Part shown: positions 387 to 42,803 of the stretch, in pieces
Numbering within the stretch: the first letter of the stretch is position 1
Layout of the letters: each line of letters opens with the position of its first letter
DNA from: Deltaproteobacteria bacterium
GTDB taxonomy: Bacteria; Desulfobacterota; Binatia; HRBIN30; JACQVA1
Assembly: GCA_016178705.1 (NCBI GenBank)
Contig: JACOST010000008.1
Span: 102,069 to 166,068, forward strand
DNA: 64,000 nucleotides
Direction: 5' to 3'
Translations under genes and position numbers: made by a program
Notes under the pieces: generated by a model
What the model saw: only the letters and a program-made list of their open reading frames with translations
Told to the model about the DNA's origin: nothing
The model's database searches: none

Positions 387-686
387 GTGTCGTTCGGGTT
401 GGTTGTACCATCCGTCGCTCCCTCCTATACTTCCGACATGCGCTCGGACATTCCACCATGGGTCGGTAAGACCAGCGATCTCTCCGATACCGAACGTTAC
501 GCGGCGATGACGCCTGTGCAACGTCTGGCTTGTTTTGTTGAGGTGTGCGAGCTGAGCCGGCGCATTCTCGAAAACCGGCACGATCGACGCGAGGTTCTGG
601 CGCGCCAGGAGCCGATGTCGCCACAGGCCGAGCGAACCTGGCTGCGTCTAGTTGACGAGGCGCGTCGTGCGCGATCAGCTCGGTAG
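387..686 (+). CDS. Small protein with a HEPN-like Rx4-6H motif (RILENRH); possible toxin partner of the downstream nucleotidyltransferase
   Basis: 99-aa ORF with GTG start (alternative ATG at 438). Contains ...CELSRRILENRHDRRE..., matching the R-x(4-6)-H HEPN signature. Overlaps the next ORF by about 35 nt. Confidence 0.35.
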   Translation: MSFGLVVPSVAPSYTSDMRSDIPPWVGKTSDLSDTERYAAMTPVQRLACFVEVCELSRRILENRHDRREVLARQEPMSPQAERTWLRLVDEARRARSAR

Positions 687-1236
687 TCTCGTTGATGTCG
701 TCGAGCGATTGATCGACGCCTTCGAGGCGACGCAGATTCCGTACGCGTTGGGGGGCGCCATCGCATACAGCGCGTGGGCCGAGCCCCGGGCAACGCGCGA
801 TATCGATCTCAACATCTGGCTCGATATGGAACATTTCGAGCCCGCATTTCGCTTGTTGGAAGCGTGCGGCGTCACGCTCGATCGGCCTGCCGCGCTGCAG
901 GCCGCGCGGGAGCGCGGGATGTTCGTCGTCCGCCACGGAGAGTATCGCATCGATGTCTTTGTCCCGAGCGTGCCCTTCTACGCCGAGGCGCTGGCGCGGC
1001 GTCAACGCGTCCGGATGGTCGATCGCGACACGTGGGTGCTGTCCGCGGAAAGTCTCGCGGTGTTCAAGATGTTGTTTCATCGTCCGAAGGACATCGCCGA
1101 CGTCGGCCGTCTCATCGAGATTCGCGGCGACGTGTTCGACGTCGACTTTGTCCGCCGGTCGTTGGTCGACATGCTCGGCGAAGACGAAGAGCGAATCGCC
1201 AGTTGGGACCGCCTGGTTCACGAGCATCGACGGTAG
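652..1236 (+). CDS. Nucleotidyltransferase-fold protein (minimal NTase / AbiEii-like family)
   Basis: Translation contains ALGGAIAYSAWAEPRATRDIDLNIWLD, fitting the hG[GS]...D.D NTase active-site pattern. Start is uncertain (TTG at 652, GTG at 667). Confidence 0.5.
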   Translation: MTRRVVRDQLGSLVDVVERLIDAFEATQIPYALGGAIAYSAWAEPRATRDIDLNIWLDMEHFEPAFRLLEACGVTLDRPAALQAARERGMFVVRHGEYRIDVFVPSVPFYAEALARRQRVRMVDRDTWVLSAESLAVFKMLFHRPKDIADVGRLIEIRGDVFDVDFVRRSLVDMLGEDEERIASWDRLVHEHRR

Positions 1237-2597: not shown

Positions 2598-3512
2598 ATG
2601 GCCGATTTGATCTTGCACCAGTACGACACCTCGCCGTTCTCCGAGAAGATCCGCAAGATCTTCGCGCACAAGCATCTGGCGTGGCGCGCGGTCGAGCAGC
2701 CGACCATCATGCCGAAGCCGCAACTGATCCCGCTCACCGGCGGCTACCGCAAAATTCCGGTGCTACAGATCGGCGCCGACGTGTATTGCGATACGCAGCT
2801 CATCGCGCGCATTATCGAAGGGCTACATCCCGAGCCGACACTCTATCCCGACAACAGCGAGGGCGCGTGCCACGCCATCGGGATGTGGGCGGACCGGTTG
2901 TTCTTCTTCTCCACCATCCCAGTGCTGTTCGCGCTCCTCGGCGACAACCTGCCGCAGGCATTCATCGACGATCGCACCAAGATGATGCCCGGCCGCAACT
3001 TCGCCGACATTCCGAAGCTGGCACCGTACGCGAAGGAGCAGTGTCGTGGCTTCGCGGCCTGGCTCAACGCACAGCTCAGTGACGGCCGCGCCTTCCTTCT
3101 CGGTCAGCGGTTCAGCTTGGCCGACGCGGCGTGCTACCACCCGGTCTGGTTCCTGCGGAACGTGCCGCCGGCGGCGACGGTGTTCGACGAGTTCCCCAAG
3201 CTGATCGCCTGGTCGGAACGCATCAAAGCCATGGGTCACGGCCAACGCAGCGACATGGACCCCGCCGACGCGTTGCGCATCGCGCGTGAGAGCAACAGCG
3301 CGACGAAGGAAGTCATCGATCCGAACGATCCCAGCGGTTTGAAGCCGGGCGACAAGGTTGCTGTCACTCCAGACGACTACGGCTTCGATCCGGTCGCGGG
3401 CACGGTAGTGATGTCGTCAGTGCACGAGGTCGCCATCCGGCGGCAGGCAGCAGAAGTCGGTGAGGTAGTGGTGCACTTCCCGCGCGTGGGATTTCGCGTC
3501 GACCGAGCGTGA
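2598..3512 (+). CDS. Glutathione S-transferase family protein
   Basis: 304 aa with an N-terminal thioredoxin-like GST_N region (HQYDTSPFSEKIRKIFAHKHL...IPVLQIGADVY) and a C-terminal helical domain. Intact ORF. Confidence 0.7.
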   Translation: MADLILHQYDTSPFSEKIRKIFAHKHLAWRAVEQPTIMPKPQLIPLTGGYRKIPVLQIGADVYCDTQLIARIIEGLHPEPTLYPDNSEGACHAIGMWADRLFFFSTIPVLFALLGDNLPQAFIDDRTKMMPGRNFADIPKLAPYAKEQCRGFAAWLNAQLSDGRAFLLGQRFSLADAACYHPVWFLRNVPPAATVFDEFPKLIAWSERIKAMGHGQRSDMDPADALRIARESNSATKEVIDPNDPSGLKPGDKVAVTPDDYGFDPVAGTVVMSSVHEVAIRRQAAEVGEVVVHFPRVGFRVDRA

Positions 3513-3548
3513 TTGACGCTCATACGCGGAGGAATTGCCCAGCCAGAA

Positions 3549-3920
3549 TCAACGGGGGCGCCGCGCTGGTCGCCTGACGCGGATTTTGCGGCCTGTGGCG
3601 ACCACGAAGCAGCGGCGCCATCGCTCCACTTCTTCGCTCGCGAAGATGGCACCTACCCGCTCCGCGAGAGCACGCCGCCCAGGCTGGTTCAATCGAACCA
3701 GCAGCAAGCCGTGATGCGTACCCGGTGCGAACTGGCGCAGGTCGGAGAAGTCGAGGTCCTGCGTGATCAAGAATCGGCGCGTGCGCTGTGCGGCTGCCCA
3801 GATATCCGAATCGGGTCGGCTCGCGAGACCTTCGTCAGGCACACTGTCCACATCATGCCCAAGCGCCACGAGGCGCTTCACCAACGCGACGGGCATGTTC
3901 TCGTCGAGTTTGATTCTCAC
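3549..3920 (-). CDS. DUF5615-family (PIN-like) protein; putative toxin of a DUF433/DUF5615 pair
   Basis: MRIKLDENMPVALVKRLVALGHDVDSV...FLITQDLDFSDL matches the DUF5615 consensus. It overlaps the upstream DUF433 gene by 4 nt. Confidence 0.65.
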   Translation of the reverse strand: MRIKLDENMPVALVKRLVALGHDVDSVPDEGLASRPDSDIWAAAQRTRRFLITQDLDFSDLRQFAPGTHHGLLLVRLNQPGRRALAERVGAIFASEEVERWRRCFVVATGRKIRVRRPARRPR

Positions 3921-4186
3921 AGTTTGGCTGGAATCGCGGAGGCCGGCAGGTCTTCCTCGGCAGAGGCGGCAGCGAAGGCAATGACCGCACGGACGTCATC
4001 TGCGGTGAGCGTGGGGAAGTCGGCAAGGATTTCCTCGGTGCTCGCACCTTCCGCCAGACTCGCCAACACGGTGCGAAGCGTCACGCGCGTACCCTTGACG
4101 ACGGGCTCACCGCCACACACCTTGCGGTTCCGAACAATTCGACTGCGGTAGTCCATGATGACCTCGCTACCCCTCAATACCAGCAT
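3917..4186 (-). CDS. DUF433 domain protein; putative antitoxin partner
   Basis: GTRVTLRTVLASLAEGASTEEILADFPTLTADDVRAVIAFAA is the DUF433 signature. It is translationally coupled to the DUF5615 gene. Confidence 0.65.
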   Translation of the reverse strand: MLVLRGSEVIMDYRSRIVRNRKVCGGEPVVKGTRVTLRTVLASLAEGASTEEILADFPTLTADDVRAVIAFAAASAEEDLPASAIPAKL

Positions 4187-4234
4187 GTTCTGCGCGACAC
4201 CATCCGAAGGACCCTGCGGGATGAGCCTCCGACG

Positions 4235-4476
4235 CGTTACGCATCGCCCACGAGAGCACGAGCACGACGAAAGAAGCCGCCGACCCGAACGACCCGAGCG
4301 GCCTCAAACCCGGCGAGAAGGTCAGCGTCACCCCAGACGACTACGGCTTCGATCCGGTCGCGGGCACGGTAGTGATGTCGTCGGTGCATGAGATCGCCAT
4401 CCGCCGCAACGCAGCGGAAGTCGGTGACGTGGTAGTGCACTTCCCGCGCGTGGGATTTCGAATCGACCGAGTGTGA
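4235..4476 (+). pseudogene. 3'-terminal fragment of a GST gene paralogous to 2598-3512 (encodes only the last ~80 codons, no start codon)
   Basis: 4241-4479 aligns with 3273-3515 at about 88% nucleotide identity, with differences mostly at third codon positions. The in-frame translation DALRIAHESTSTTKEAADPNDPSGLKPGEKVSVTPDDYGFDPVAGTVVMSSVHEIAIRRNAAEVGDVVVHFPRVGFRIDRV* parallels the GST C-terminus. The open frame begins right after a stop at 4232-4234. Confidence 0.6.
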
Positions 4477-4534
4477 TTGACGGTCTAACGCTTCGAAGAC
4501 TGCGCCGCGAAGCATTCAACTCGCGAGGCACCGG

Positions 4535-7489
4535 CTACGAACCGAGGATTGCCTTCTTCGCATCAGCGAGTTCCTCGTCGCGGCCATGGTAGCCGCAAGC
4601 GTTGATGAGTTTCTCCGCTGCGGCGAGATCGGCTTGCGGCGATTCCCACGGATAAGCCGCCCCTTCATTTCGCATCCCGGAATCCGCATTCCGCATTCCA
4701 AAGAGCCGGGCGCGATGCAGGTGAATATCCGCCATGAACAGCCTCATGGGGCCGCGCTCGGCGATGTCCCAGGCTTCGTCCAGGTCGCTCTGGGCACTCT
4801 CGGGGCCGATGCGCGCGCCGGTGAGAAGCCGCAGCCAGGCGCGAGTGAGGAGGCCGAGGGGAATCATGTGCTGCGTGCCGGCGCGTCGGAGGCCGGCCAC
4901 GGCCTGATCAATTTCCGATTTCGGGTTTTGGATTTCGGACTTTTCCAAGATCACCGCGTAGAGCGCAGCGCGGCCCAGGGTGAGGTGGTGAAGCGCGAAG
5001 TCGAGAATAGGAGCGCCGCGCATTCCTTCCTCCCACTTGAGCGTCTGCGCCGCGCGCTGCTCGACCGCGCGGCATGCCTCAACCAATTTCGGATTTCGGA
5101 CTTCGGATTTCGAATTCAACAACAGTTCCCACGCGGCACGCTCCGCCTCCGTCAAGAGCAGGTCGCAATACTGGAAGCCCTGCACCGAATACAGCAGCGG
5201 GTAGCCGGGCTGACTCTCGGCCTGCATCTGCTCGGCCTCGCGGAAGCGCGCCTCCGCCTCGGCCCGGCGGCCCGCCTGGTGCAGGGCGTCGGCATGGGTC
5301 GTGCGCACAATATTCCACATGCCAGCATCGCCGCTGCGGTCGGCGTAGGTCACGGACTGCTCGGCGTCCCCCACCGCCCCGGCCACCTCGCCCAGCGTCA
5401 GCTCCAGCTCGCTCAGGTTGCTGGCGCCCGCGGCAGCGTGCTCCCAGTCCTTCTTCTTGGCCGCCCATTCTGTTGCAGCCCGCATCGGATCGAGGGCCTC
5501 GGTCAGCCGGCCCAAGGCGCGCAGGGTGAAGGCGGCTGCATTCAACAGCCAGGCTTGGTCGGCTTCCGTGAGCGCGGGCGAGACGCGGCTCCACGGGGTC
5601 TCGAAGAAGCAGGCGATCGCTCCCAGGTTGGAACCAAGCGCCCCGAGTTTTCTCACGCTATAGATTTCGTTTCCACGCTGGATGCGCGAGAAGAAGACCT
5701 TGTCACACGCCTCCTGCTGCCACCCCGCCTGGCAGCCGTGGGCCACGCTTTGGTAGAGCGGTTGGAGGTCTTCGAGGGTGGGCTGGTCGCCTTCCTTCGT
5801 GCTCGCGCAGAGGTGTTCGTAGAGCCGCCGGTGCGAGCCGCGCCAGGCCTCGGGCTGCCGCGTGCGGAGTTGCCGGGCGAAGTATTCGCGCAGCAGCGGG
5901 TGGGCATCCAGCGAGACCAGCGTGCCGGCCGCGTCCCGGTTCACCGTGAGTAGCTTCGCGGTCTCCAGCCGGGTGAGGGCCACGTTCCGCTGCGCCTCGC
6001 TGATCCGGACAAGCGCCCCGGTCAGGCCCGGGACGGCGGGAGCCTTCAGCAGCGCGGCCAGGCAGTCGGCGGTCGCGGGCCGGTCGAACAACCCGAGCAG
6101 TCGCAGTAGGGCGAGAGCGCGCTTGCCTTTCTCCCCCTCGCTTTCGTACGACAGCACATACGCATCCATCACACGGAAGGCGTGGCCGCCCTGTTCCTCG
6201 GCGTCGGCTTCCTCAAACTTCACGAGGTCGCGCTTGCGGATGTCCCCGGCATGCGCGTCGTGGAGGTAAGCGCCAAGCAGGTTCAAGGTGAGCGCGTGGC
6301 CTTGCACGTCTTCCACCAGCGCCGCGAATTCCTTTTGATTCCCCGTCACGCCGAGTCGCTTGAGCAGCGCCACGCCGGCGTCCTTGGACAGGCGCGTGAG
6401 CTTCACTTCCGGCGCGGTGGTCTGCCAGTAGGCGCGCAAGTCGGGGATGGAATACCGAGTGGTGACGACGCACAGGCCGTGGCTGGTGGCGGCCAGCCCT
6501 TTGAGCAGGGCGGCGAGACCCTGGTCTTTGAGTTCGCCCGGCGTGGGTGAGGTGGGCGCGTATTGCAGCGGCTCCAGGCCGTCGAGGATGAGCAGCGCCC
6601 GCCGCTCACCGACGAGCTGCGCCAGCCGCCGGCCTTTGTCGAACGCGCCCTGCGCACTGCCCGCCATCGCCGCGTCGCCGAAGAAGGTGAGCGCTTCCTT
6701 GAGAAACACGTCGGACGATGCCGCGGCCTGCTCGCGCGTGCCCTGGCTGTAGAAAGACCACGCGAAGACTGCGTCGCACCCCGACCAGTCCTGACCCGCC
6801 AACTCCGCCGCCCACTTCGCCACCAGCGAAGTCTTCCCCTCGCCGCCGAGGGCGACGAAGGTGAGCACGTGCGGGCGCGGTGCGGCGGCGTTGCGGACCT
6901 TCGCCCAGGCGTCGGAGAGCAGCTTTGTTTCCGCCTCGCGGCCGATGAGTTCCGCCGGGGCGTATTTGATGATGCGGGAGATGTCGAACCTGCTGGCAGG
7001 AGTCGGGGTCGAGTCGGGTGGTTTCCGTGGCGGGGTGATGCCTTGGTTGAGGGAGAGGCGCTTGAGAATCTCTTCCGCGATTTCCTTCGCGTTGCTGGTG
7101 TCGATGTCGATGTATCCATCTCCACTGAGAATGCCGAGTTCGGTAACATCTCCAGGGTTTCCGAAGCTGAGGAACATGATTCTCCGTGCCTCCACCGTGG
7201 CGAGCATCTGGCGGATGAATCTCCATTCAAGCCGGCACCAACGCTTGGCGGCATACTCCGGACAGAGAAAGAGCACGATCAGCTCCGACTGCGTGCGGTA
7301 GAGATTGGGCAGATAGACATCCAAGTCCGGCGCAGCGAATTCCGCCTGGTGGTACTTGTCGTAGAGTACCCGATCCGTGGTGAATTGGGCGGCCAGATGG
7401 CCTGCCACCTGTTTCACAAATTCCCGATGCTCGCCCGGAAACGAGAGGGCGACGTCGAAGCGGCGTGGAGTGTCCGCATCTGTACTCAT
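4535..7489 (-). CDS. TIR–NB-ARC (STAND NTPase)–TPR protein; bacterial NLR-like candidate antiphage defense protein
   Basis: 984 aa. The N-terminus (FDVALSFPGEHREFV...CPEYAAKRWCRLEW) is TIR-like. It is followed by Walker A LGGEGKTSL, Walker B LLILDGLE and a TTR motif (GLCVVTTRYS) typical of the NB-ARC/AP-ATPase clade. The C-terminal ~500 aa are TPR-like helical repeats with in-frame 7-aa repeats (KSEIQNP, GMRNADS). Confidence 0.7.
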   Translation of the reverse strand: MSTDADTPRRFDVALSFPGEHREFVKQVAGHLAAQFTTDRVLYDKYHQAEFAAPDLDVYLPNLYRTQSELIVLFLCPEYAAKRWCRLEWRFIRQMLATVEARRIMFLSFGNPGDVTELGILSGDGYIDIDTSNAKEIAEEILKRLSLNQGITPPRKPPDSTPTPASRFDISRIIKYAPAELIGREAETKLLSDAWAKVRNAAAPRPHVLTFVALGGEGKTSLVAKWAAELAGQDWSGCDAVFAWSFYSQGTREQAAASSDVFLKEALTFFGDAAMAGSAQGAFDKGRRLAQLVGERRALLILDGLEPLQYAPTSPTPGELKDQGLAALLKGLAATSHGLCVVTTRYSIPDLRAYWQTTAPEVKLTRLSKDAGVALLKRLGVTGNQKEFAALVEDVQGHALTLNLLGAYLHDAHAGDIRKRDLVKFEEADAEEQGGHAFRVMDAYVLSYESEGEKGKRALALLRLLGLFDRPATADCLAALLKAPAVPGLTGALVRISEAQRNVALTRLETAKLLTVNRDAAGTLVSLDAHPLLREYFARQLRTRQPEAWRGSHRRLYEHLCASTKEGDQPTLEDLQPLYQSVAHGCQAGWQQEACDKVFFSRIQRGNEIYSVRKLGALGSNLGAIACFFETPWSRVSPALTEADQAWLLNAAAFTLRALGRLTEALDPMRAATEWAAKKKDWEHAAAGASNLSELELTLGEVAGAVGDAEQSVTYADRSGDAGMWNIVRTTHADALHQAGRRAEAEARFREAEQMQAESQPGYPLLYSVQGFQYCDLLLTEAERAAWELLLNSKSEVRNPKLVEACRAVEQRAAQTLKWEEGMRGAPILDFALHHLTLGRAALYAVILEKSEIQNPKSEIDQAVAGLRRAGTQHMIPLGLLTRAWLRLLTGARIGPESAQSDLDEAWDIAERGPMRLFMADIHLHRARLFGMRNADSGMRNEGAAYPWESPQADLAAAEKLINACGYHGRDEELADAKKAILGS

Positions 7490-7644
7490 GGCTGGGCAGA
7501 GGGATACCAGTCATGGGCAGGCGTAGACAAGGATTTCGCTTTGACGTGGACGATTCAGTAGGACAGGCACCCCTTCTCACCCAGGAACGCGCAGGAGCGT
7601 CACCGGCCTTGGAACCGCACCAGCCTCCAAGCTATTGTAGTTGC

Positions 7645-7917
7645 ATGCTGCCGCGAGGAGTTGCCAGCGTTGTTACTGCTGCCACGCACGACCGCGTGGT
7701 CATCGGCGACGCCGAGCTGGATCACGCCAGGCGCCATTTCCCCTTGCCGCGCGACCTCCTGCTCAAACTCGTAGAGCGCGTCCTCATGCACCCCACGGCG
7801 GTACTCGTTGATGACGCCAAGAGCCCACGGCAATATCGTCTGTTCTATCGATTGGAGGACGGCCGCTACCTGCTGGCCGTTGTGAAGGTCACACGCGCCT
7901 TTTTCGCCAGCATGTAA
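7645..7917 (+). CDS. DUF4258-like small protein (putative toxin of a DUF4258/DUF2283 pair)
   Basis: ...HARRHFPLPRDLLLKLVERVLMHPTAVLVDDAKSPRQYRLFYRLEDGRYLLAVVKV resembles the DUF4258 pattern (HA..R...RgI...VV.v). ATG at 7645; a longer ORF from 7465 is possible. Confidence 0.4.
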   Translation: MLPRGVASVVTAATHDRVVIGDAELDHARRHFPLPRDLLLKLVERVLMHPTAVLVDDAKSPRQYRLFYRLEDGRYLLAVVKVTRAFFASM

Positions 7918-7969
7918 CCCAACGGGACGGCGCGTTCGGCGGCGCGCACCGCAAGTTCAGGAGGCTCCT

Positions 7970-8251
7970 ATGATGAAGAAGCCCAGCATCTCGTTCCGCC
8001 ACTTCGAGGGCTCCGGCCCGTTGTCGGTCTACTGGTACCCGGGGCCATACGGCGACGCCGTAGATGCCAGAAGCGGCGCCGGCGTCGGGTGGTTTGCGCC
8101 CAACGGGGAATTGCTCGGCGTCGAGTTCGACGACGTCACCGTTGAGCACGATCACCAAACACTTCCGTTCGCGAATGGAGAGAGCGTTGAAATCGAGGTC
8201 AGCCGCGGCAAGGTATCCGTCCGGCGCAAGCGGATTCGAAACGTTGCGTAG
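7970..8251 (+). CDS. DUF2283-like small protein (putative antitoxin partner)
   Basis: ...VGWFAPNGELLGVEFDDVTVEH fits the DUF2283 core (dG.lvGIEil). Adjacent and co-oriented with the DUF4258-like gene. Confidence 0.4.
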   Translation: MMKKPSISFRHFEGSGPLSVYWYPGPYGDAVDARSGAGVGWFAPNGELLGVEFDDVTVEHDHQTLPFANGESVEIEVSRGKVSVRRKRIRNVA

Positions 8252-9487: not shown

Positions 9488-9991
9488 ATGCCGCGCCGCG
9501 CTCCCACACCAAAGCGAGCAGCCGCCCGCCCGACTCCTCCGTCGCGCCGCAAACCCTTGGTGCCACTGAGCGCGGTGCGCGCGTATCTCGTCGCGCAGTC
9601 TGAAGTGGTGGCGCCCGAGGACATTCGCACGTTACTCACTCAGGTCGATTCCATTCGCCACAAAGCCAAGCTCGACATGGTGCAGCACCCGCGGTTTCAC
9701 CGCCAGGTCGATGTCGCGCTGGAACTGTTGGTCGACCACACCGCCGGCGAGTGCCCGCAGATCCCCCTCTACACCGTCAGCTTGCTGGCCGCCGCGCTGT
9801 TCTACTTCATCGAGCCAATGGACCTCATCCCCGACTTCATTCCGCGCATCGGTCTGACCGACGATGCCCTCATGCTCGAACTCGCCTGCCAACTCGGCGC
9901 CCCGGGCCTCGATCGCTATTGCACGTTCAAGAGCATCGCGACCGACGGTGTGTTCACAAGGCCGGGCACACTCGCACGACGCCGATCGTAG
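9488..9991 (+). CDS. DUF1232 (YkvA-like) membrane protein
   Basis: Contains DLIPDFIPRIGLTDDALML, the DUF1232 signature. Confidence 0.65.
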   Translation: MPRRAPTPKRAAARPTPPSRRKPLVPLSAVRAYLVAQSEVVAPEDIRTLLTQVDSIRHKAKLDMVQHPRFHRQVDVALELLVDHTAGECPQIPLYTVSLLAAALFYFIEPMDLIPDFIPRIGLTDDALMLELACQLGAPGLDRYCTFKSIATDGVFTRPGTLARRRS

Positions 9992-10026
9992 TCTCCAGGG
10001 AAGCTGCGCAGGGCTAGCGAGCTTCC

Positions 10027-10095
10027 CACCAAAGTCGCCCCTCGATACGCCGTCCCTCGATACGAAGCCTTCGGCTTCTACTCGGGACGACTACT
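10027..10095. repeat. REP/MITE-like element, copy 2 (inverted relative to 2428-2497), followed by a partial third copy at about 10125-10170
   Basis: The reverse complement of cgcccctcgatacgccgtccctcgatacgaagccttcggcttctactcgggacgactactcggggaag matches 2428-2497 with few mismatches. The downstream cccgtttgcccgagtag...cgtatcgaggg repeats the element core in direct orientation. Confidence 0.7.
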
Positions 10096-10205
10096 CGGGG
10101 AAGCGGTGCGGGTCAGGAACTCCAACACCCGTTTGCCCGAGTAGATCGCAAAGCGATCGTATCGAGGGTGCGAAGCGCGCGACCGTGAGAGTCGCGCGGC
10201 GGTCG

Positions 10206-11225
10206 TTACGCGACCAAGTCGGTCGCGCTCTTCTTCTCGATGCCAAGCGCGGCGATCAGCCGCTCGCGGACGTGCTGCGCAGCGGGCTGCCAGTCGCCGT
10301 CGGGAACCGGCATGCGTCCGCCGGCGATTTGATCGTGGCCGCCCGCGTGGTGGCTGCCGAGGACCTTTTGCAGCAGCTCGCCGGCGTTGACGTCGCGATT
10401 GACCGTGCGCAGCGACACGTACAGCGCGCCCTGATAGTAGCCCATCGCCGCGGTCCATTCGGCCTGATCGAGCCGCAAAAGAAAATCGGCAACTTCAGCC
10501 ACCATGTCGGGATAGCGCACCTCGCCGATCGAGGTGATCACGGCCTTGTCGTCGTAGATCACCGCCGACTCGATAGCGTCGCGGAAGCCGCGGAAGTACT
10601 CGCGCGGCACGCGCGCGTTCTCGATCTTCGCCAGACGCCGCTTGTTGGTGTGCGGATAGAGAAACTGGCTGGCGTGAATGTCCGCCTGCGTCGCTTCGCG
10701 GCCAAGGTCTTGGGTTTCCGCCGCGATCCCGTAAAAGAGCGCGGTGGCGATTTTCGGTTCGATTTCCAACCGCGACTCTTGCAGGTACTCGGTGAGAATC
10801 GTGGAGGTGGCGCCGTACTCATCACGCAAGTCGAAGAATGGAACCTGATGCGTATCGCAGTAGGCCGGGTGATGATCGATCACCACCGCCGGCGGGAAGC
10901 CTTCGGGAAGCGAGTTGTTGGTACGCCCCGGTTGCGTGTCGACCAACGCGACGACGGTGTCGCGCGCGAACGGAATGTCGCCGACCGGAACGAGATTGAT
11001 GTTGAGGTAGGTTAGCATCGCGCGGTTCTCTGCCCGCCCGACGATCCCGCCGAGGGCGATGACGGAATCCTTCCCGAGCCGATGCTTGACGATGTACTGT
11101 AGCGTCGCGGCGCTGGCGAGCGCGTCGGGGTCCGGGTTGTCGTGCGGCAGGATGACAAACGGGCCGGCCTGCTCCACCACGTCGAGGAGAGCCCCGAGCG
11201 CCCCTTTACCCGAGTTATTGGGCAT
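10206..11225 (-). CDS. DHH/DHHA1 phosphoesterase (NrnA-like oligoribonuclease/pAp phosphatase)
   Basis: Has the DHH-family motifs ILPHDNPDPDALAS and VVIDHH, with a C-terminal DHHA1 region ending ...GGHDQIAGGRMP. Confidence 0.75.
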   Translation of the reverse strand: MPNNSGKGALGALLDVVEQAGPFVILPHDNPDPDALASAATLQYIVKHRLGKDSVIALGGIVGRAENRAMLTYLNINLVPVGDIPFARDTVVALVDTQPGRTNNSLPEGFPPAVVIDHHPAYCDTHQVPFFDLRDEYGATSTILTEYLQESRLEIEPKIATALFYGIAAETQDLGREATQADIHASQFLYPHTNKRRLAKIENARVPREYFRGFRDAIESAVIYDDKAVITSIGEVRYPDMVAEVADFLLRLDQAEWTAAMGYYQGALYVSLRTVNRDVNAGELLQKVLGSHHAGGHDQIAGGRMPVPDGDWQPAAQHVRERLIAALGIEKKSATDLVA

Positions 11226-11290: not shown

Positions 11291-11554
11291 TCATCGACTC
11301 GACGACTCGACGTGGCCCTGCAGCTCCGCGCGGGCCGCCATGTGCGCGGCGCGCAGACCGGCGAGCTGGCCGTCTTCGTAGTTGAACTCCGGATCGCGCA
11401 CGAGCGCGGGAAAATCGTGCGGGTTGCGGAGATCCTCGGACGTGAGATCGGGAACCACTTCACGCGCCATGCGCAGCAGCTTGCTCTCCTGCTGCGCGAT
11501 CATTTGCGTGAACAGCCGATCGAGCGCGGCGAGCGTGTCCTCGGCCACCGACAC
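11291..11554 (-). CDS. Hypothetical protein (87 aa, GTG start)
   Basis: ORF immediately upstream of the nrnA-like gene and co-oriented with it. No recognisable motif. It could be the 3' part of a frameshifted gene together with 11567-11926. Confidence 0.25.
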   Translation of the reverse strand: MSVAEDTLAALDRLFTQMIAQQESKLLRMAREVVPDLTSEDLRNPHDFPALVRDPEFNYEDGQLAGLRAAHMAARAELQGHVESSSR

Positions 11555-11566
11555 GATCCATCCGAT

Positions 11567-11926
11567 CTAGGCGAGTAAGGCGGCGAAGCGGCGCAGCAGG
11601 TTCGCGCGCACCGACTCCGGCACTTCGTCGTCGGGCGCGCGCGTCAGCGTGCTGTGATACCACTGGCACGCCGCCACGTAGAAGTAGTCGAGCACAACAT
11701 CGAAGACGATGCGGACGGTCAACGCGAACTCATCCTCGCGCAGCGCCAGTACCGATTGCTCGTCGTCGAGAAAGACGCCGGGCGTGTGCATCGCGCGAAA
11801 GACATTGACCCGCAGCCCCACGCATTCGTGCAGACTCGCGTATGGTGCTGCGTCGAGCAACCGCTGACTCACGTTCCCCTCCCCCGTGAACTGCGCATGA
11901 CCGGCTCGTGTACTTGACGGCGGCAT
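11567..11926 (-). CDS. Hypothetical protein (119 aa)
   Basis: ORF separated by 12 nt and a frame change from the next ORF. No recognisable motif. Confidence 0.25.
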   Translation of the reverse strand: MPPSSTRAGHAQFTGEGNVSQRLLDAAPYASLHECVGLRVNVFRAMHTPGVFLDDEQSVLALREDEFALTVRIVFDVVLDYFYVAACQWYHSTLTRAPDDEVPESVRANLLRRFAALLA

Positions 11927-24554: not shown

Positions 24555-27221
<2,667 letters not shown>

Positions 27222-27285: not shown

Positions 27286-27370
27286 CTTCTGGTCTGTGGT
27301 TTCTGGTTTCTGGTCTGTGGTTTCTGGTCTCTGGCTTTCAGCTTTCGGCTTTCCGCTTTCAACTTCTTCC
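27286..27370. repeat. Tandem array with 7-nt period (ctggtct/gtggttt/ctggctt units, about 12 units)
   Basis: cttctggtctgtggtttctggtttctggtctgtggtttctggtctctggctttcagctttcggctttccgctttc, read directly from the sequence upstream of valS. Confidence 0.8.
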
Positions 27371-37944: not shown

Positions 37945-38007
37945 GGTTTTGGATTGCGGATTGGGGATTGCGGAGTGCGGAATGCAGAGTGCGGAATGCG
38001 GAATGCC
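37945..38007. repeat. Heptamer tandem array (GGATTGC/GGAATGC/GGAGTGC units, about 9 units)
   Basis: ggttttggattgcggattggggattgcggagtgcggaatgcagagtgcggaatgcggaatgcc. Confidence 0.8.
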
Positions 38008-38027
38008 ACCACGGTCCGCGCGAATGA

Positions 38028-38090
38028 GTCACGAACACGACTCACCAGTCACGAATCACGATTTCACGATCTCACGACCTCACGGTCCGC
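38028..38090. repeat. Heptamer tandem array (CACGAAT/CACGATT units, about 8 units)
   Basis: gtcacgaacacgactcaccagtcacgaatcacgatttcacgatctcacgacctcacgg. Confidence 0.75.
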
Positions 38091-38429: not shown

Positions 38430-38512
38430 GGAGTCCAAACCTCAAAGTCCAAGGTTCAAAGTCAACTCTTGGGCTTGGAACTTTGGACTTTAGACCTTGG
38501 ACTTTGGACTCA
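38430..38512. repeat. Heptamer array with inverted symmetry (AAAGTCC units then GGACTTT units); overlaps the last codons of rarA
   Basis: gagtccaaacctcaaagtccaaggttcaaagtcaactcttgggcttggaactttggactttagaccttggactttggactc. Confidence 0.75.
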
Positions 38513-40946: not shown

Positions 40947-41078
40947 CAGATGGCTGATCGCCGATGGCTGATCGCAGAGCGAGCGTTCCGACTGGTTTTG
41001 CGGTTCTCCCTCCCACCATCAGCCATCAGCCATGTGCCATCAGCCACTCCCGCCATCAGCCACACGCCATAAGCCACC
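40947..41078. repeat. Heptamer array with inverted symmetry (GATGGCT units then CATCAGC units) between nadK and recN
   Basis: cagatggctgatcgccgatggctgatcgc...accatcagccatcagccatgtgccatcagccactcccgccatcagccacacgccataagccacc. Confidence 0.75.
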
Positions 41079-41084
41079 GCGGCC

Positions 41085-42803
41085 ATGCTCCGTTCTCTTC
41101 GCATCGCGAACTTCGCCATCATCGACGAGCTGGCGCTGGAGTTTGCGCCCGGCCTCAACGTCCTGACCGGCGAGACCGGTGCCGGCAAGAGTATCATCAT
41201 GCAGGCGCTCGGGTTGCTCTGCGGAGCGCGCGGATCGGCCGACCTCATCCGCACGGGCGCCGACGAAGCGGCGATCGACGCGGTGCTCGATTTGTCTGCC
41301 GATGCCCGTACGGCCGCAACGGAGTTGGGCCTCGACGGCGACGACGAACTGAGCTTGCGGCGCATGATCGCGCGCGCCGGCAAAGGGCGGCTGCACCTCA
41401 ACGGCAGTCCGTCGACGCTGGCGGTGCTGACGCAACTCGGGTTGCGGCTGCTGCACATCTACGGTCAGCATGAGTATGCGCTGCTGTTGCACCCGGATAC
41501 GCATCTCGACTTGCTCGATGACCTTGGCCGGCTTACGGCGCCTCGGCACGAGTTCACCACGGCGTATCGTGCCCTGGTGGCTGCGCACCACAATCTGACG
41601 GCGCTCACACAGGGCGGGCAAGCGGCGCGCGCGCACGCTGAGCTGCTGCGTTTTCAAATCACCGAACTCGAAGCCGCGGCACCGGAGCCGGACGAAGAAT
41701 CTCACCTTCAACAGGAACGCGAAGTGCTGCGCCACGCCGAGCAATTGGCGCAAGCGTGTGACGGCGGCGAGGCGGCACTGTACTCGGGCGACGATGCGGC
41801 GGCGCCGGTTGTCGCCCGCATCCGCACGCAATTGCGCGACCTCGCCCGCATCGACCCGCGCCTCAGCGAGATCGCCGCGTTGCTCGACGCTGCGCATACG
41901 CAACTCGACGAGGCGGCGCTGCAGTTGCGACAATACGCCAATCGCATTCATCACGATCCAGACAGATTGGCGGCGGCCGACGAGCGGCTCGCGCTGCTGC
42001 GCCAGTTGGCGCGCAAGCACAACTGCCGCGGCGACGAATTGGCCGCGCAGCTCGAGACGCTACGCGCCGAATTGGATCGCGTCACCGGTGCCGGGCTCGA
42101 TCTCGAATCGGCACAGCAGGCGGTGACCGTCGCCGCCCGCGCGGCCTGGCGAAGCGCCGCCGCCCTCTCTGCGGTGCGGCGCCTCGCCGGGTGCGAACTC
42201 GAGCGGCGCATGCACGCCGAGCTACCGACTCTGGGGATGGAAGGGGCAACCTTCACCGTGCAGTTTGCCAGCGAGATGAACGCCAGCGAGCCGTCGGCGA
42301 GTGATCCGTTCGTCCTTGGCGAGGCGCGGCTGAGCGAACGCGGCGGCGATCGCGTCGAGTTTCATCTCAGCGCCAACCGCGGTGAGGCGCCGCGCCCGCT
42401 CGCCAAGGTCGCCTCGGGCGGTGAGCTGTCGCGCATCATGCTGGCGCTCAAGGTCCTCACCGCCGGTGCCGGCGAAGTCGACACGCTGATCTTCGACGAA
42501 GTCGACACGGGGATCGGGGGCACCGTGGCCGACGCCGTTGGGCGCCGGCTCAAGGCGCTCGCATGCGAGCGGCAGATCCTGTGCATCACGCATCTGCCGC
42601 AGATTGCGGTCCACGCGGATCACCACTTCGCAGTCGAGAAGCGCGTGCGCAAGGGCCGCACGGTGACCAGCGCAAAGGCGCTGAGTCCCGACGAGCGCGT
42701 TGTTGAGTTGTCGCGCATGTTGGGCGGTGCCGTCACCAGCCGCGAGGCGGAACGCTACGCGCGCCGCCTGATCTCCGAGGCGCACAAGGGGTCTCCAGCC
42801 TGA
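41085..42803 (+). CDS. recN: DNA repair protein RecN
   Basis: MLRSLRIANFAIIDELALEFAPGLNVLTGETGAGKSIIMQAL..., SMC-like coiled-coil, and a C-terminal signature ...LSGGELSRIMLAL...IFDEVDTGIGG. Confidence 0.85.
   Translation: MLRSLRIANFAIIDELALEFAPGLNVLTGETGAGKSIIMQALGLLCGARGSADLIRTGADEAAIDAVLDLSADARTAATELGLDGDDELSLRRMIARAGKGRLHLNGSPSTLAVLTQLGLRLLHIYGQHEYALLLHPDTHLDLLDDLGRLTAPRHEFTTAYRALVAAHHNLTALTQGGQAARAHAELLRFQITELEAAAPEPDEESHLQQEREVLRHAEQLAQACDGGEAALYSGDDAAAPVVARIRTQLRDLARIDPRLSEIAALLDAAHTQLDEAALQLRQYANRIHHDPDRLAAADERLALLRQLARKHNCRGDELAAQLETLRAELDRVTGAGLDLESAQQAVTVAARAAWRSAAALSAVRRLAGCELERRMHAELPTLGMEGATFTVQFASEMNASEPSASDPFVLGEARLSERGGDRVEFHLSANRGEAPRPLAKVASGGELSRIMLALKVLTAGAGEVDTLIFDEVDTGIGGTVADAVGRRLKALACERQILCITHLPQIAVHADHHFAVEKRVRKGRTVTSAKALSPDERVVELSRMLGGAVTSREAERYARRLISEAHKGSPA

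Follow-up and report, generated by a model that had tools for sequence, protein, structure and literature searches.

A candidate single-gene TIR–STAND NTPase–TPR immune receptor of uncultured bacteria with heptanucleotide arrays in its sensor loops

We analysed a 64,000-nucleotide stretch (the window) of contig JACOST010000008.1 from a Deltaproteobacteria bacterium (assembly GCA_016178705.1, positions 102,069 to 166,068). A complete gene on its minus strand encodes a protein that joins a TIR domain, a STAND NTPase and a tetratricopeptide repeat (TPR)-like sensor in a single polypeptide (Table 1). The initial annotation, made by reading the letters and a list of open reading frames (ORFs), described a 984-residue minus-strand ORF. 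The same ORF is present in the ORF list, in GenBank and in independent gene calls, and every motif quoted at that time can be located in the protein. The protein is identical to MBI1814090.1 and MBI3388676.1, both from Deltaproteobacteria metagenome-assembled genomes (MAGs), and independent gene calls on contig JACPZC010000026.1 of GCA_016195705.1 give an identical gene with the same neighbours. Residues are numbered from Met1 (7487-7489). A scan for promoters and terminators gives no signal beyond shuffled expectation.

The AlphaFold2 model of the full-length protein, built with an input alignment of 60 homologs, is confident, with a predicted local distance difference test score (pLDDT) of 85.6 and a predicted template modelling score (pTM) of 0.67. 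It comprises a TIR fold, a disordered Pro-rich linker, a nucleotide-binding oligomerisation domain (NOD) and an alpha-solenoid. Motifs, model and fold matches agree with one another, and the tripartite TIR / STAND NTPase / TPR-like reading holds. A sequence search of the PDB with the full-length protein or a profile returns only noise-level SRP54 P-loop matches and weak TIR matches. The protein has no match to the hidden Markov models (HMMs) of PADLOC (PADLOC-DB 2.0, including the Avs1-5 models) or NCBIfam.

The TIR domain contains the motifs FDVALSFPGEHREFV (residues 11-25) and RWCRLEW (residues 83-89). Its hallmarks had been recognised by eye, and Pfam TIR_2 (PF13676) exceeds its gathering cut-off of 28 bits both with the whole protein (32.4 bits) and with the domain alone (36.7 bits). 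E88 is invariant in 17/17 sequences of the TIR subtype, as are R10, F11, S16, P18, G19, E20, R22, Y43, D44, W84, C85, and D124. When the profile of the subtype is compared with solved structures, TIR domains of plant TIR-type NLRs (nucleotide-binding leucine-rich repeat receptors) come first (RPS4 with E 1e-3, then SNC1, RUN1, RPV1, and L6), and the WCxLE motif of the subtype falls on the WCxxEL Glu of RPS4, SNC1, and RUN1. The Glu of the plant WCxxEL motif is reportedly the catalytic residue, as Horsefield et al. and Wan et al. are said to have found in 2019. Therefore, the Glu that was picked out by eye as the catalytic one, E88 in our numbering, is correctly assigned. The second-best match of the TIR-subtype profile (E 1.3e-3) is chain A of the recently solved PDB 9M0N / 9UMD, an 824-residue 'Tetratricopeptide repeat protein' with a TIR-like N-terminus. 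The full-length model does not have this protein among its best fold matches, and a literature search for these two entries found no paper.

The NOD and the region behind it follow the order of a STAND protein, with a P-loop nucleotide-binding domain that carries Walker A and Walker B, a helical domain, a winged helix, and a repeat sensor. The TTR motif, which has been noted for NB-ARC domains (PMC9806590), lies within VVTTRYS (residues 341-347). G-H-A-L (residues 397-400) is invariant or at least 90% conserved in the 60-homolog alignment. From its position in the fold, the His of D-A-H-P probably occupies the place of the NB-ARC 'MHD' His. Foldseek ranks PH0952 (1.9e-11), Apaf-1 (7e-9), NRC3/NRC4/ZAR1, and CED-4 above NLRC4 (2e-4), and across the three fold searches, which agree, the closest folds belong to STANDs that are autoinhibited or oligomerise, namely NRC2, Apaf-1, PH0952, and MalT. 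The closest structural neighbours are thus NB-ARC/Apaf-1/CED-4, not NACHT. Pfam NB-ARC (PF00931) gives no match to the whole protein or the NOD alone even at E<=10, Pfam NACHT (PF05729) stays below its cut-off (19.9-22.4 versus 26.7 bits), and Pfam AAA_16 also scores under its cut-off. The DGLE of Walker B is one feature that we take to resemble NACHT. The proposed membership in the NB-ARC clade is borne out by structure and by the TTR motif but not by Pfam, and the initial annotation had itself named the lack of such a match as a reason to give the assignment up.

Structural comparison places the C-terminal sensor among TPR-like / SUPR alpha-solenoids. No Pfam TPR model reaches its cut-off in the query (TPR_12, 19.8 versus 30.1 bits), and some homologs carry precomputed TPR_12 matches. 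Of the ~500 residues of TPR-like repeats that had been proposed, the solenoid fold stands, but the repeat region is ~420 residues long and the TPR HMMs remain below threshold.

Table 1. Features of the gene and its surroundings in the window (a dot marks features listed with no strand).
Feature	Position	Strand	Details and evidence
Complete TIR / NOD (STAND NTPase) / TPR-like sensor gene	4535..7489	-	984 residues, ATG start; ORF list
TIR domain, residues ~11-148	7046..7459	-	motifs SFPGEHR and WCRLE, like those of plant TIR-NLRs
Glu88 codon, predicted catalytic (NADase) Glu	7226..7228	-	subtype alignment and plant TIR alignment
NOD: nucleotide-binding domain, helical domain, and winged helix, residues ~167-563	5801..6991	-
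Walker A GGEGKT, residues 215-220, Lys219	6830..6847	-	invariant in 60/60 aligned homologs
Walker B LLILDGLE, residues 299-306	6572..6595	-	D303, G304, and E306 invariant in homolog alignment
TTR motif, residues 343-345, sensor-1 Arg as in NB-ARC RNBS-B	6455..6463	-	at least 90% conserved
D-A-H-P, residues 528-531, winged helix	5897..5908	-	D, H, and P invariant
TPR-like alpha-solenoid sensor, residues ~567-984	4538..5791	-	~20 helices in AlphaFold2 model
Heptamer array 1, unit ATTTCGG, 4.4 copies	5086..5116	.	loop 1 (SKSEVRNPK, residues ~793-801); Tandem Repeats Finder, motif scan, loop variability
Heptamer array 2	4912..4942	.	loop 2 (KSEIQNPKSEI, residues ~850-860); repeat family D4, motif scan, loop variability
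Heptamer array 3, unit CATTCCG, 4.9 copies	4666..4699	.	loop 3 (GMRNADSGMRNEG, residues ~931-943); Tandem Repeats Finder, AlphaFold2 model, loop variability
DUF433 / DUF5615 (PIN-like) toxin–antitoxin-type pair; neighbour, outside the system	3549..4186	-	Pfam E 2.7e-21 and 3.3e-22
Remnant copy of the 3' end of the glutathione S-transferase (GST) gene	4226..4491	+	last ~83 codons and stop still open
PBECR2 (BECR-fold RNase-type) gene and 93-residue ORF; divergently oriented neighbours	7645..8251	+	PBECR2 29.1 bits, cut-off 27.1

The protein belongs to a large family. A word-indexed protein search gives 4,086 significant matches among 8,000 scored candidates, and the best 120 matches share 59-81% identity over the core. 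In an exhaustive search with the sensor alone, 1,512 clusters (50% identity) are found at E<=1e-30, and the sensor is almost always C-terminal in proteins of 950-1,250 residues. The GTDB species representatives hold at least 544 relatives, drawn from 600 pattern matches listed. The hosts among these listed matches are Acidobacteriota, Verrucomicrobiota, Planctomycetota, and Alpha-, Beta-, Gamma-, and Deltaproteobacteria, nearly all of them MAGs. A literature search found no paper on the family.

BLAST comparisons reveal a sharp module boundary at residues ~160-169, with a conserved core and an N-terminus that differs upstream of it. The G+C content is 0.584 at window positions 7001-7500, the TIR-coding part, versus 0.64-0.69 in the remaining gene, which is consistent with a separate origin of the TIR module and the core. 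We classified the N-terminal modules of 75 genes from species-representative loci. The most frequent is the classical TIR_2 module (19 genes), followed by DUF4062, also called NIR (16), SEFIR (13), and the plant-like TIR found in the query (12). The remaining genes carry an unannotated module named 'unknown-A' (4), a short coiled coil (3), SMEK_N (2), an unannotated cyclase-like module (2), HATPase_c_4 (1), or other unclassified modules (3). The two TIR types, DUF4062 and SEFIR together head 60/75 genes, so that 80% of the sample has, by fold, an NADase-type head. DUF4062 has been shown by experiment to be an NAD+-depleting Avs effector, and TIR and SEFIR are listed with the same chemistry (10.64898/2026.09.04.749371).

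When the paralogs are searched with PADLOC, matches fall on the N-terminal heads only and never on the core. SEFIR heads match bSEFIR (E 1e-44), SMEK_N heads match the restriction endonuclease (REase) effector associated with prokaryotic Argonautes (E 7e-33), the 'unknown-A' head (P0047/P0106, residues 1-195, no Pfam family) weakly matches an endonuclease effector (E 6e-8), and classical TIR heads weakly match ThsB, SAVED-TIR, and SPARTA-type models. In accordance, the description of the gene as a poorly characterised candidate for NLR-type defence can be upheld: the core has no model in PADLOC or NCBIfam, and the heads match effectors of validated defence systems. The criteria of Lee et al. 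2026 for a defence-associated STAND clade include annotated defence effectors in at least 50% of its members and a statistical enrichment of known defence systems within 5 kb (PMC13581612). The effector share in our own sample, scored with Pfam and PADLOC instead of the CDD pipeline, lies above that level, with 60/75 genes plus the REase- and endonuclease-like modules. The head of L057 and L065, two of the homolog loci, looks cyclase-like by eye (residues 1-223) and matches no family; together with 'unknown-A' it is a candidate new effector.

Two or three paralogs stand in tandem at ~10 of 79 loci, often with different heads. Examples are L002:8001-14150 (TIR and NIR), L031:9326-15614 (SEFIR and NIR), L078:10067-17581, and L087:2610-13228, which has three copies; the first gene of L087 (1,464 residues) also contains a PNP_UDP_1 domain. 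The homologs P0053 and P0107 carry an extra MinD/ParA-like domain.

In the window, the gene lies in an accessory stretch of ~4.8 kb between GST and aguA, together with two toxin–antitoxin-like pairs. Both GST and aguA, named as neighbours from the start, have Pfam matches, the agmatine deiminase as PAD_porph with E 1.5e-116. The DUF433/DUF5615 pair is likewise confirmed by Pfam for both members. The second pair had been read as DUF4258/DUF2283-like; its first member is PBECR2 instead of DUF4258, and its 93-residue partner matches no family. The duplication of the 3' end of GST is real (266 nt, 84% identity, 3262-3527 versus 4226-4491).

In two unrelated genomes, a DUF433-type cassette lies between long, diverged direct repeats (84-98% identical) that correspond to the 3' end of a gene next to it. 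In the window this gene is GST, and at L088 it is the STAND homolog itself (9961-10617 versus 11356-11815); neither site has an integrase close by. The arrangement points to a recurrent mode of insertion or recombination for DUF433-type cassettes. Upstream of queG, an overlapping pair of small genes lies at 387-686 (+) and 652-1236 (+). The 194-residue product of the pair has weak nucleotidyltransferase matches (NTP_transf_5, 21 bits; AbiEii, E 0.013), and the pair at 387-1236 may be a third toxin–antitoxin-like module of the stretch.

The neighbours are not conserved with the receptor gene. A functional link to the flanking pairs is rejected, as DUF433 occurs near the homolog at 2/83 other loci and PBECR2 and the 93-residue ORF at 0/83. 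A conserved partner gene is also rejected by all-versus-all clustering of 528 neighbours within 5 kb, which leaves 425 singletons; the largest cluster, with 7 loci, consists of a distinct double-SEFIR protein encoded immediately upstream of the core. Since no conserved neighbour is present at 79 loci, the family is a one-gene system. The argument that the gene sits in a defence island is weak and, in the form in which it was made, unsupported, as the toxin–antitoxin pairs are not conserved neighbours and many homologs lie amid housekeeping genes. Some loci are rich in defence genes, with DISARM DrmMI/type IIG, PDC-S05, and ThsB within 2.5 kb; a DpnII restriction–modification system adjoins the L087 paralog triplet, and DruA, IS66, and a group II intron reverse transcriptase lie near the L088 homolog. 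It is the effector modules, rather than the neighbours of this locus, that argue for a defence role.

An odd feature of the gene is found in the sensor. Three loops of a scaffold that is conserved elsewhere, at residues ~793-804, ~850-860, and ~931-945, are hypervariable, and in the window each of them is encoded by an imperfect 7-nt tandem array. Loop 3 has a pLDDT below 50 in the AlphaFold2 model. We counted merged period-7 arrays at 80 loci in family genes, in other called coding sequences, and in non-coding DNA. Family genes have 0.246 arrays per kb versus 0.054 per kb in other coding sequences (65 versus 47 arrays, 4.6-fold, binomial p = 2e-15); the rate in non-coding DNA is 0.335 per kb. 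At least one in-gene array is present at 37/80 loci, with up to 14 copies of the unit. Across phyla the arrays fall, in frame, in the same three or four sensor loops and at a site near residues ~520-560, and the units vary by lineage (examples, from loci ranging from L002 to L083, are L079:4974-5070, L015:12125-12198, and L057:12160-12233). Between the syntenic orthologs of L057 and L065, which share 80% identity, a perfect 21-nt (3 x 7) repeat at loop 2 is expanded in frame. No more than two clean frameshifts inside a gene were detected (L072:12192 and L079:~5015-5030), and both lie on a heptamer array; assembly error is possible. A metagenome scan for strain-level repeat variants, made with the exact array flanks, gave no matches. 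The window has further 7-nt arrays, mostly intergenic (27287-27365, 37951-38084, 38469-38510, and 41016-41086). One of them, GGAATGC x8 at 37951-38006, shares its unit with the loop 3 array, and a weak array at 25413-25445 lies inside the valyl-tRNA synthetase gene.

Heptanucleotide repeats are known as a phase-variation device in neuO (PMC13001214). The arrays of the family may be tolerated junk in permissive loops, or they may reflect selected loop diversity or ON-OFF switching. It is conceivable, but on present evidence doubtful, that they serve as repeat-driven contingency or diversification sites in three or four solvent loops, at which in-frame changes of 21 nt (7 residues) would vary the loops in length and sequence and occasional slips of one unit would switch the gene OFF. 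Such diversification or phase variation of a potentially suicidal receptor would be comparable, in spirit, to the repeat instability of fungal NLRs and to neuO. If functional, the heptamer arrays would be a new way to modulate an NLR-type receptor.

Taken as a whole, the gene probably encodes a stand-alone, single-polypeptide sensor of the NLR/Avs type that acts in abortive-infection immunity and whose TIR domain would deplete NAD+; both role and chemistry are predictions. At rest, the C-terminal TPR-like solenoid would keep the ADP-bound NOD closed. A ligand, probably a conserved phage protein or peptide and less likely a small molecule, would bind the solenoid and release autoinhibition. ATP binding, through Lys219 and Asp303/Glu306, is then predicted to drive oligomerisation. 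This would bring the N-terminal TIR domains together into composite active sites around Glu88. The assembled TIR domains could hydrolyse NAD+, and the infected cell would be arrested or killed.

Several points weigh against an immune role. The structures closest to the sensor are MalT domain III and the RRNPP receptors, which bind sugar and peptides, not phage proteins. Housekeeping genes flank many of the copies, and some of these copies occupy a conserved syntenic site, which in five Acidobacteriota loci (four from Pyrinomonadaceae) lies between carB/MoCF and nuoA. Unlike many mobile defence genes, the family was not found by tblastn in 72,556 PLSDB plasmids or 50,697 INPHARED phages, nor by a pattern scan in 2.9 million IMG/VR contigs. 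We also compared, with PADLOC HMMs and counts at the family level, 142 genes within 2.5 kb of the homologs with 148 control genes 5.5-10 kb away. The near set has matches to DrmMI, type IIG, PDC-S05, ThsB, and bSEFIR and the control set has matches to PtuA, IetA, and AbiLi, so that PADLOC matches are not clearly commoner near the homologs, with a control that is not independent of islands. The core escapes PADLOC and NCBIfam, and cultured model organisms contribute no member to the family. In addition, TIR domains can make signalling nucleotides or serve as scaffolds.

The trigger is the main uncertainty of an immune reading. It is possible, though unlikely, that a small molecule or an endogenous signal of stress or damage acts as the trigger, in the manner of the MalT ligand, and that the output is regulated death or dormancy in broader conflict or stress. 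The sensor is most like sensors of sugar and peptides, and with a family that is chromosomal and in some cases inherited vertically, a non-phage ligand is conceivable. However, TPR-like solenoids are the commonest sensors in the Avs families that sense phage proteins (PMC13581612), so the likeness of the sensor fold does not identify the ligand, and immune receptors typically show both effector swapping and tandem arrays of paralogs.

That the TIR domain generates a signal, such as cyclic ADP-ribose (cADPR)-type nucleotides as in Thoeris, for an effector encoded elsewhere in the genome is improbable. Bacterial and plant TIR domains can yield cADPR isomers (10.64898/2025.12.03.692087), and the catalytic Glu fits either chemistry. 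However, no conserved effector gene neighbours the 79 loci, the TIR domain is interchangeable with the directly acting SEFIR, DUF4062/NIR, and nuclease-like modules, and a survey of Thoeris counts TIR domains that stand alone or are embedded in Avs proteins among the NAD+ depleters (10.64898/2025.12.03.692087). Least probable of all is that the protein is a STAND regulator or scaffold outside immunity, comparable to MalT, AfsR, or GutR, and that its TIR is a protein-interaction domain only: the NOD and sensor do resemble MalT, and PADLOC matches occur in both the near and the control set, but the protein has no DNA-binding or other regulatory output domain, its catalytic Glu and the surrounding motif are invariant, and its paralogs carry enzymatic toxic effectors at the N-terminus.

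We regard the gene as a solid, if rather unexceptional, candidate for anti-phage defence. If the proposed function is confirmed, a very large family, spread across phyla and invisible to PADLOC, would be added to the bacterial pattern-recognition receptors. Defence surveys of cultured genomes would miss it, because its hosts are uncultured soil and freshwater bacteria. With TIR, SEFIR, NIR, and nuclease heads that are exchanged on one conserved chassis, the family offers a natural system for studying effector exchange, and the pairing of plant-like TIR motifs with an NB-ARC-like NOD gives one more data point on how TIR-NLRs are rooted in bacteria.

The three-part architecture is identical to that of the plant TNPs (TIR-NB-ARC-TPR proteins, formerly XTNX), and a maize TNP triggers a cell death that needs its catalytic Glu and P-loop (PMC9806590). 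Common ancestry with the plant TNPs is rejected at the level of sequence, as the family NOD profile scores no more than 7 bits against TNP NB-ARC segments (PMC9806590) and the reverse search fails. The TIR motif is YTIEEL in TNPs and WCxLE in the query. The likeness to plant TNPs is architectural only.

Plant TIR-NLRs (RPS4, RUN1, RPP1, and ROQ1) have leucine-rich repeats and a C-JID where the query has a TPR-like solenoid. They also differ in their NB-ARC domain, which has no Pfam counterpart in the query, and in Walker B, which is DDVW in plant TIR-NLRs and DGLE in the query. MalT and archaeal PH0952 share the combination of a STAND module with a TPR/SUPR sensor, but MalT senses maltotriose and has a DNA-binding output, whereas the output of the query is a TIR domain. 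The bNACHT proteins, reportedly described by Kibby et al. in 2023, share the single-gene, NLR-like logic of defence, and NACHT is the best ATPase HMM of the query at a sub-threshold 22.4 bits.

The Avs (AVAST) proteins resemble the query in that one polypeptide combines an exchangeable N-terminal effector (TIR and DUF4062/NIR among others), a STAND NTPase, and a large C-terminal TPR-like sensor, and they share the predicted logic in which ligand-induced oligomerisation would activate the effector. Avs3 is a significant Foldseek match to the query model (E 1e-5). In contrast to Avs, the core of the query matches no PADLOC Avs model, its sensor is nearest to MalT domain III, and its family occurs solely in environmental bacteria that are uncultured and is not found on plasmids or phages. 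Avs1-5 are said to have been described by Gao et al. in 2020 and 2022. Lee et al. 2026 have added Avs7-21 and ~90 further families in an analysis of 589 clades (PMC13581612). As judged by PADLOC, NCBIfam, and the literature, the query family appears to be new and uncharacterised.

TIR-AP-ATPase-TPR proteins were described by Leipe et al. in 2004 and by Kaur et al. in 2020 (PMC7159879). They share the architecture of the query family, including MinD/ParA-like variants and paralogs with different effectors. The published examples are mainly from Actinobacteria and Cyanobacteria, often in multi-gene 'ternary' systems (PMC7159879), whereas the query family is stand-alone. Because both this architecture and TIR- or NIR-headed Avs proteins are already established, the query family is best described as a large, uncharacterised family of a recognised type.

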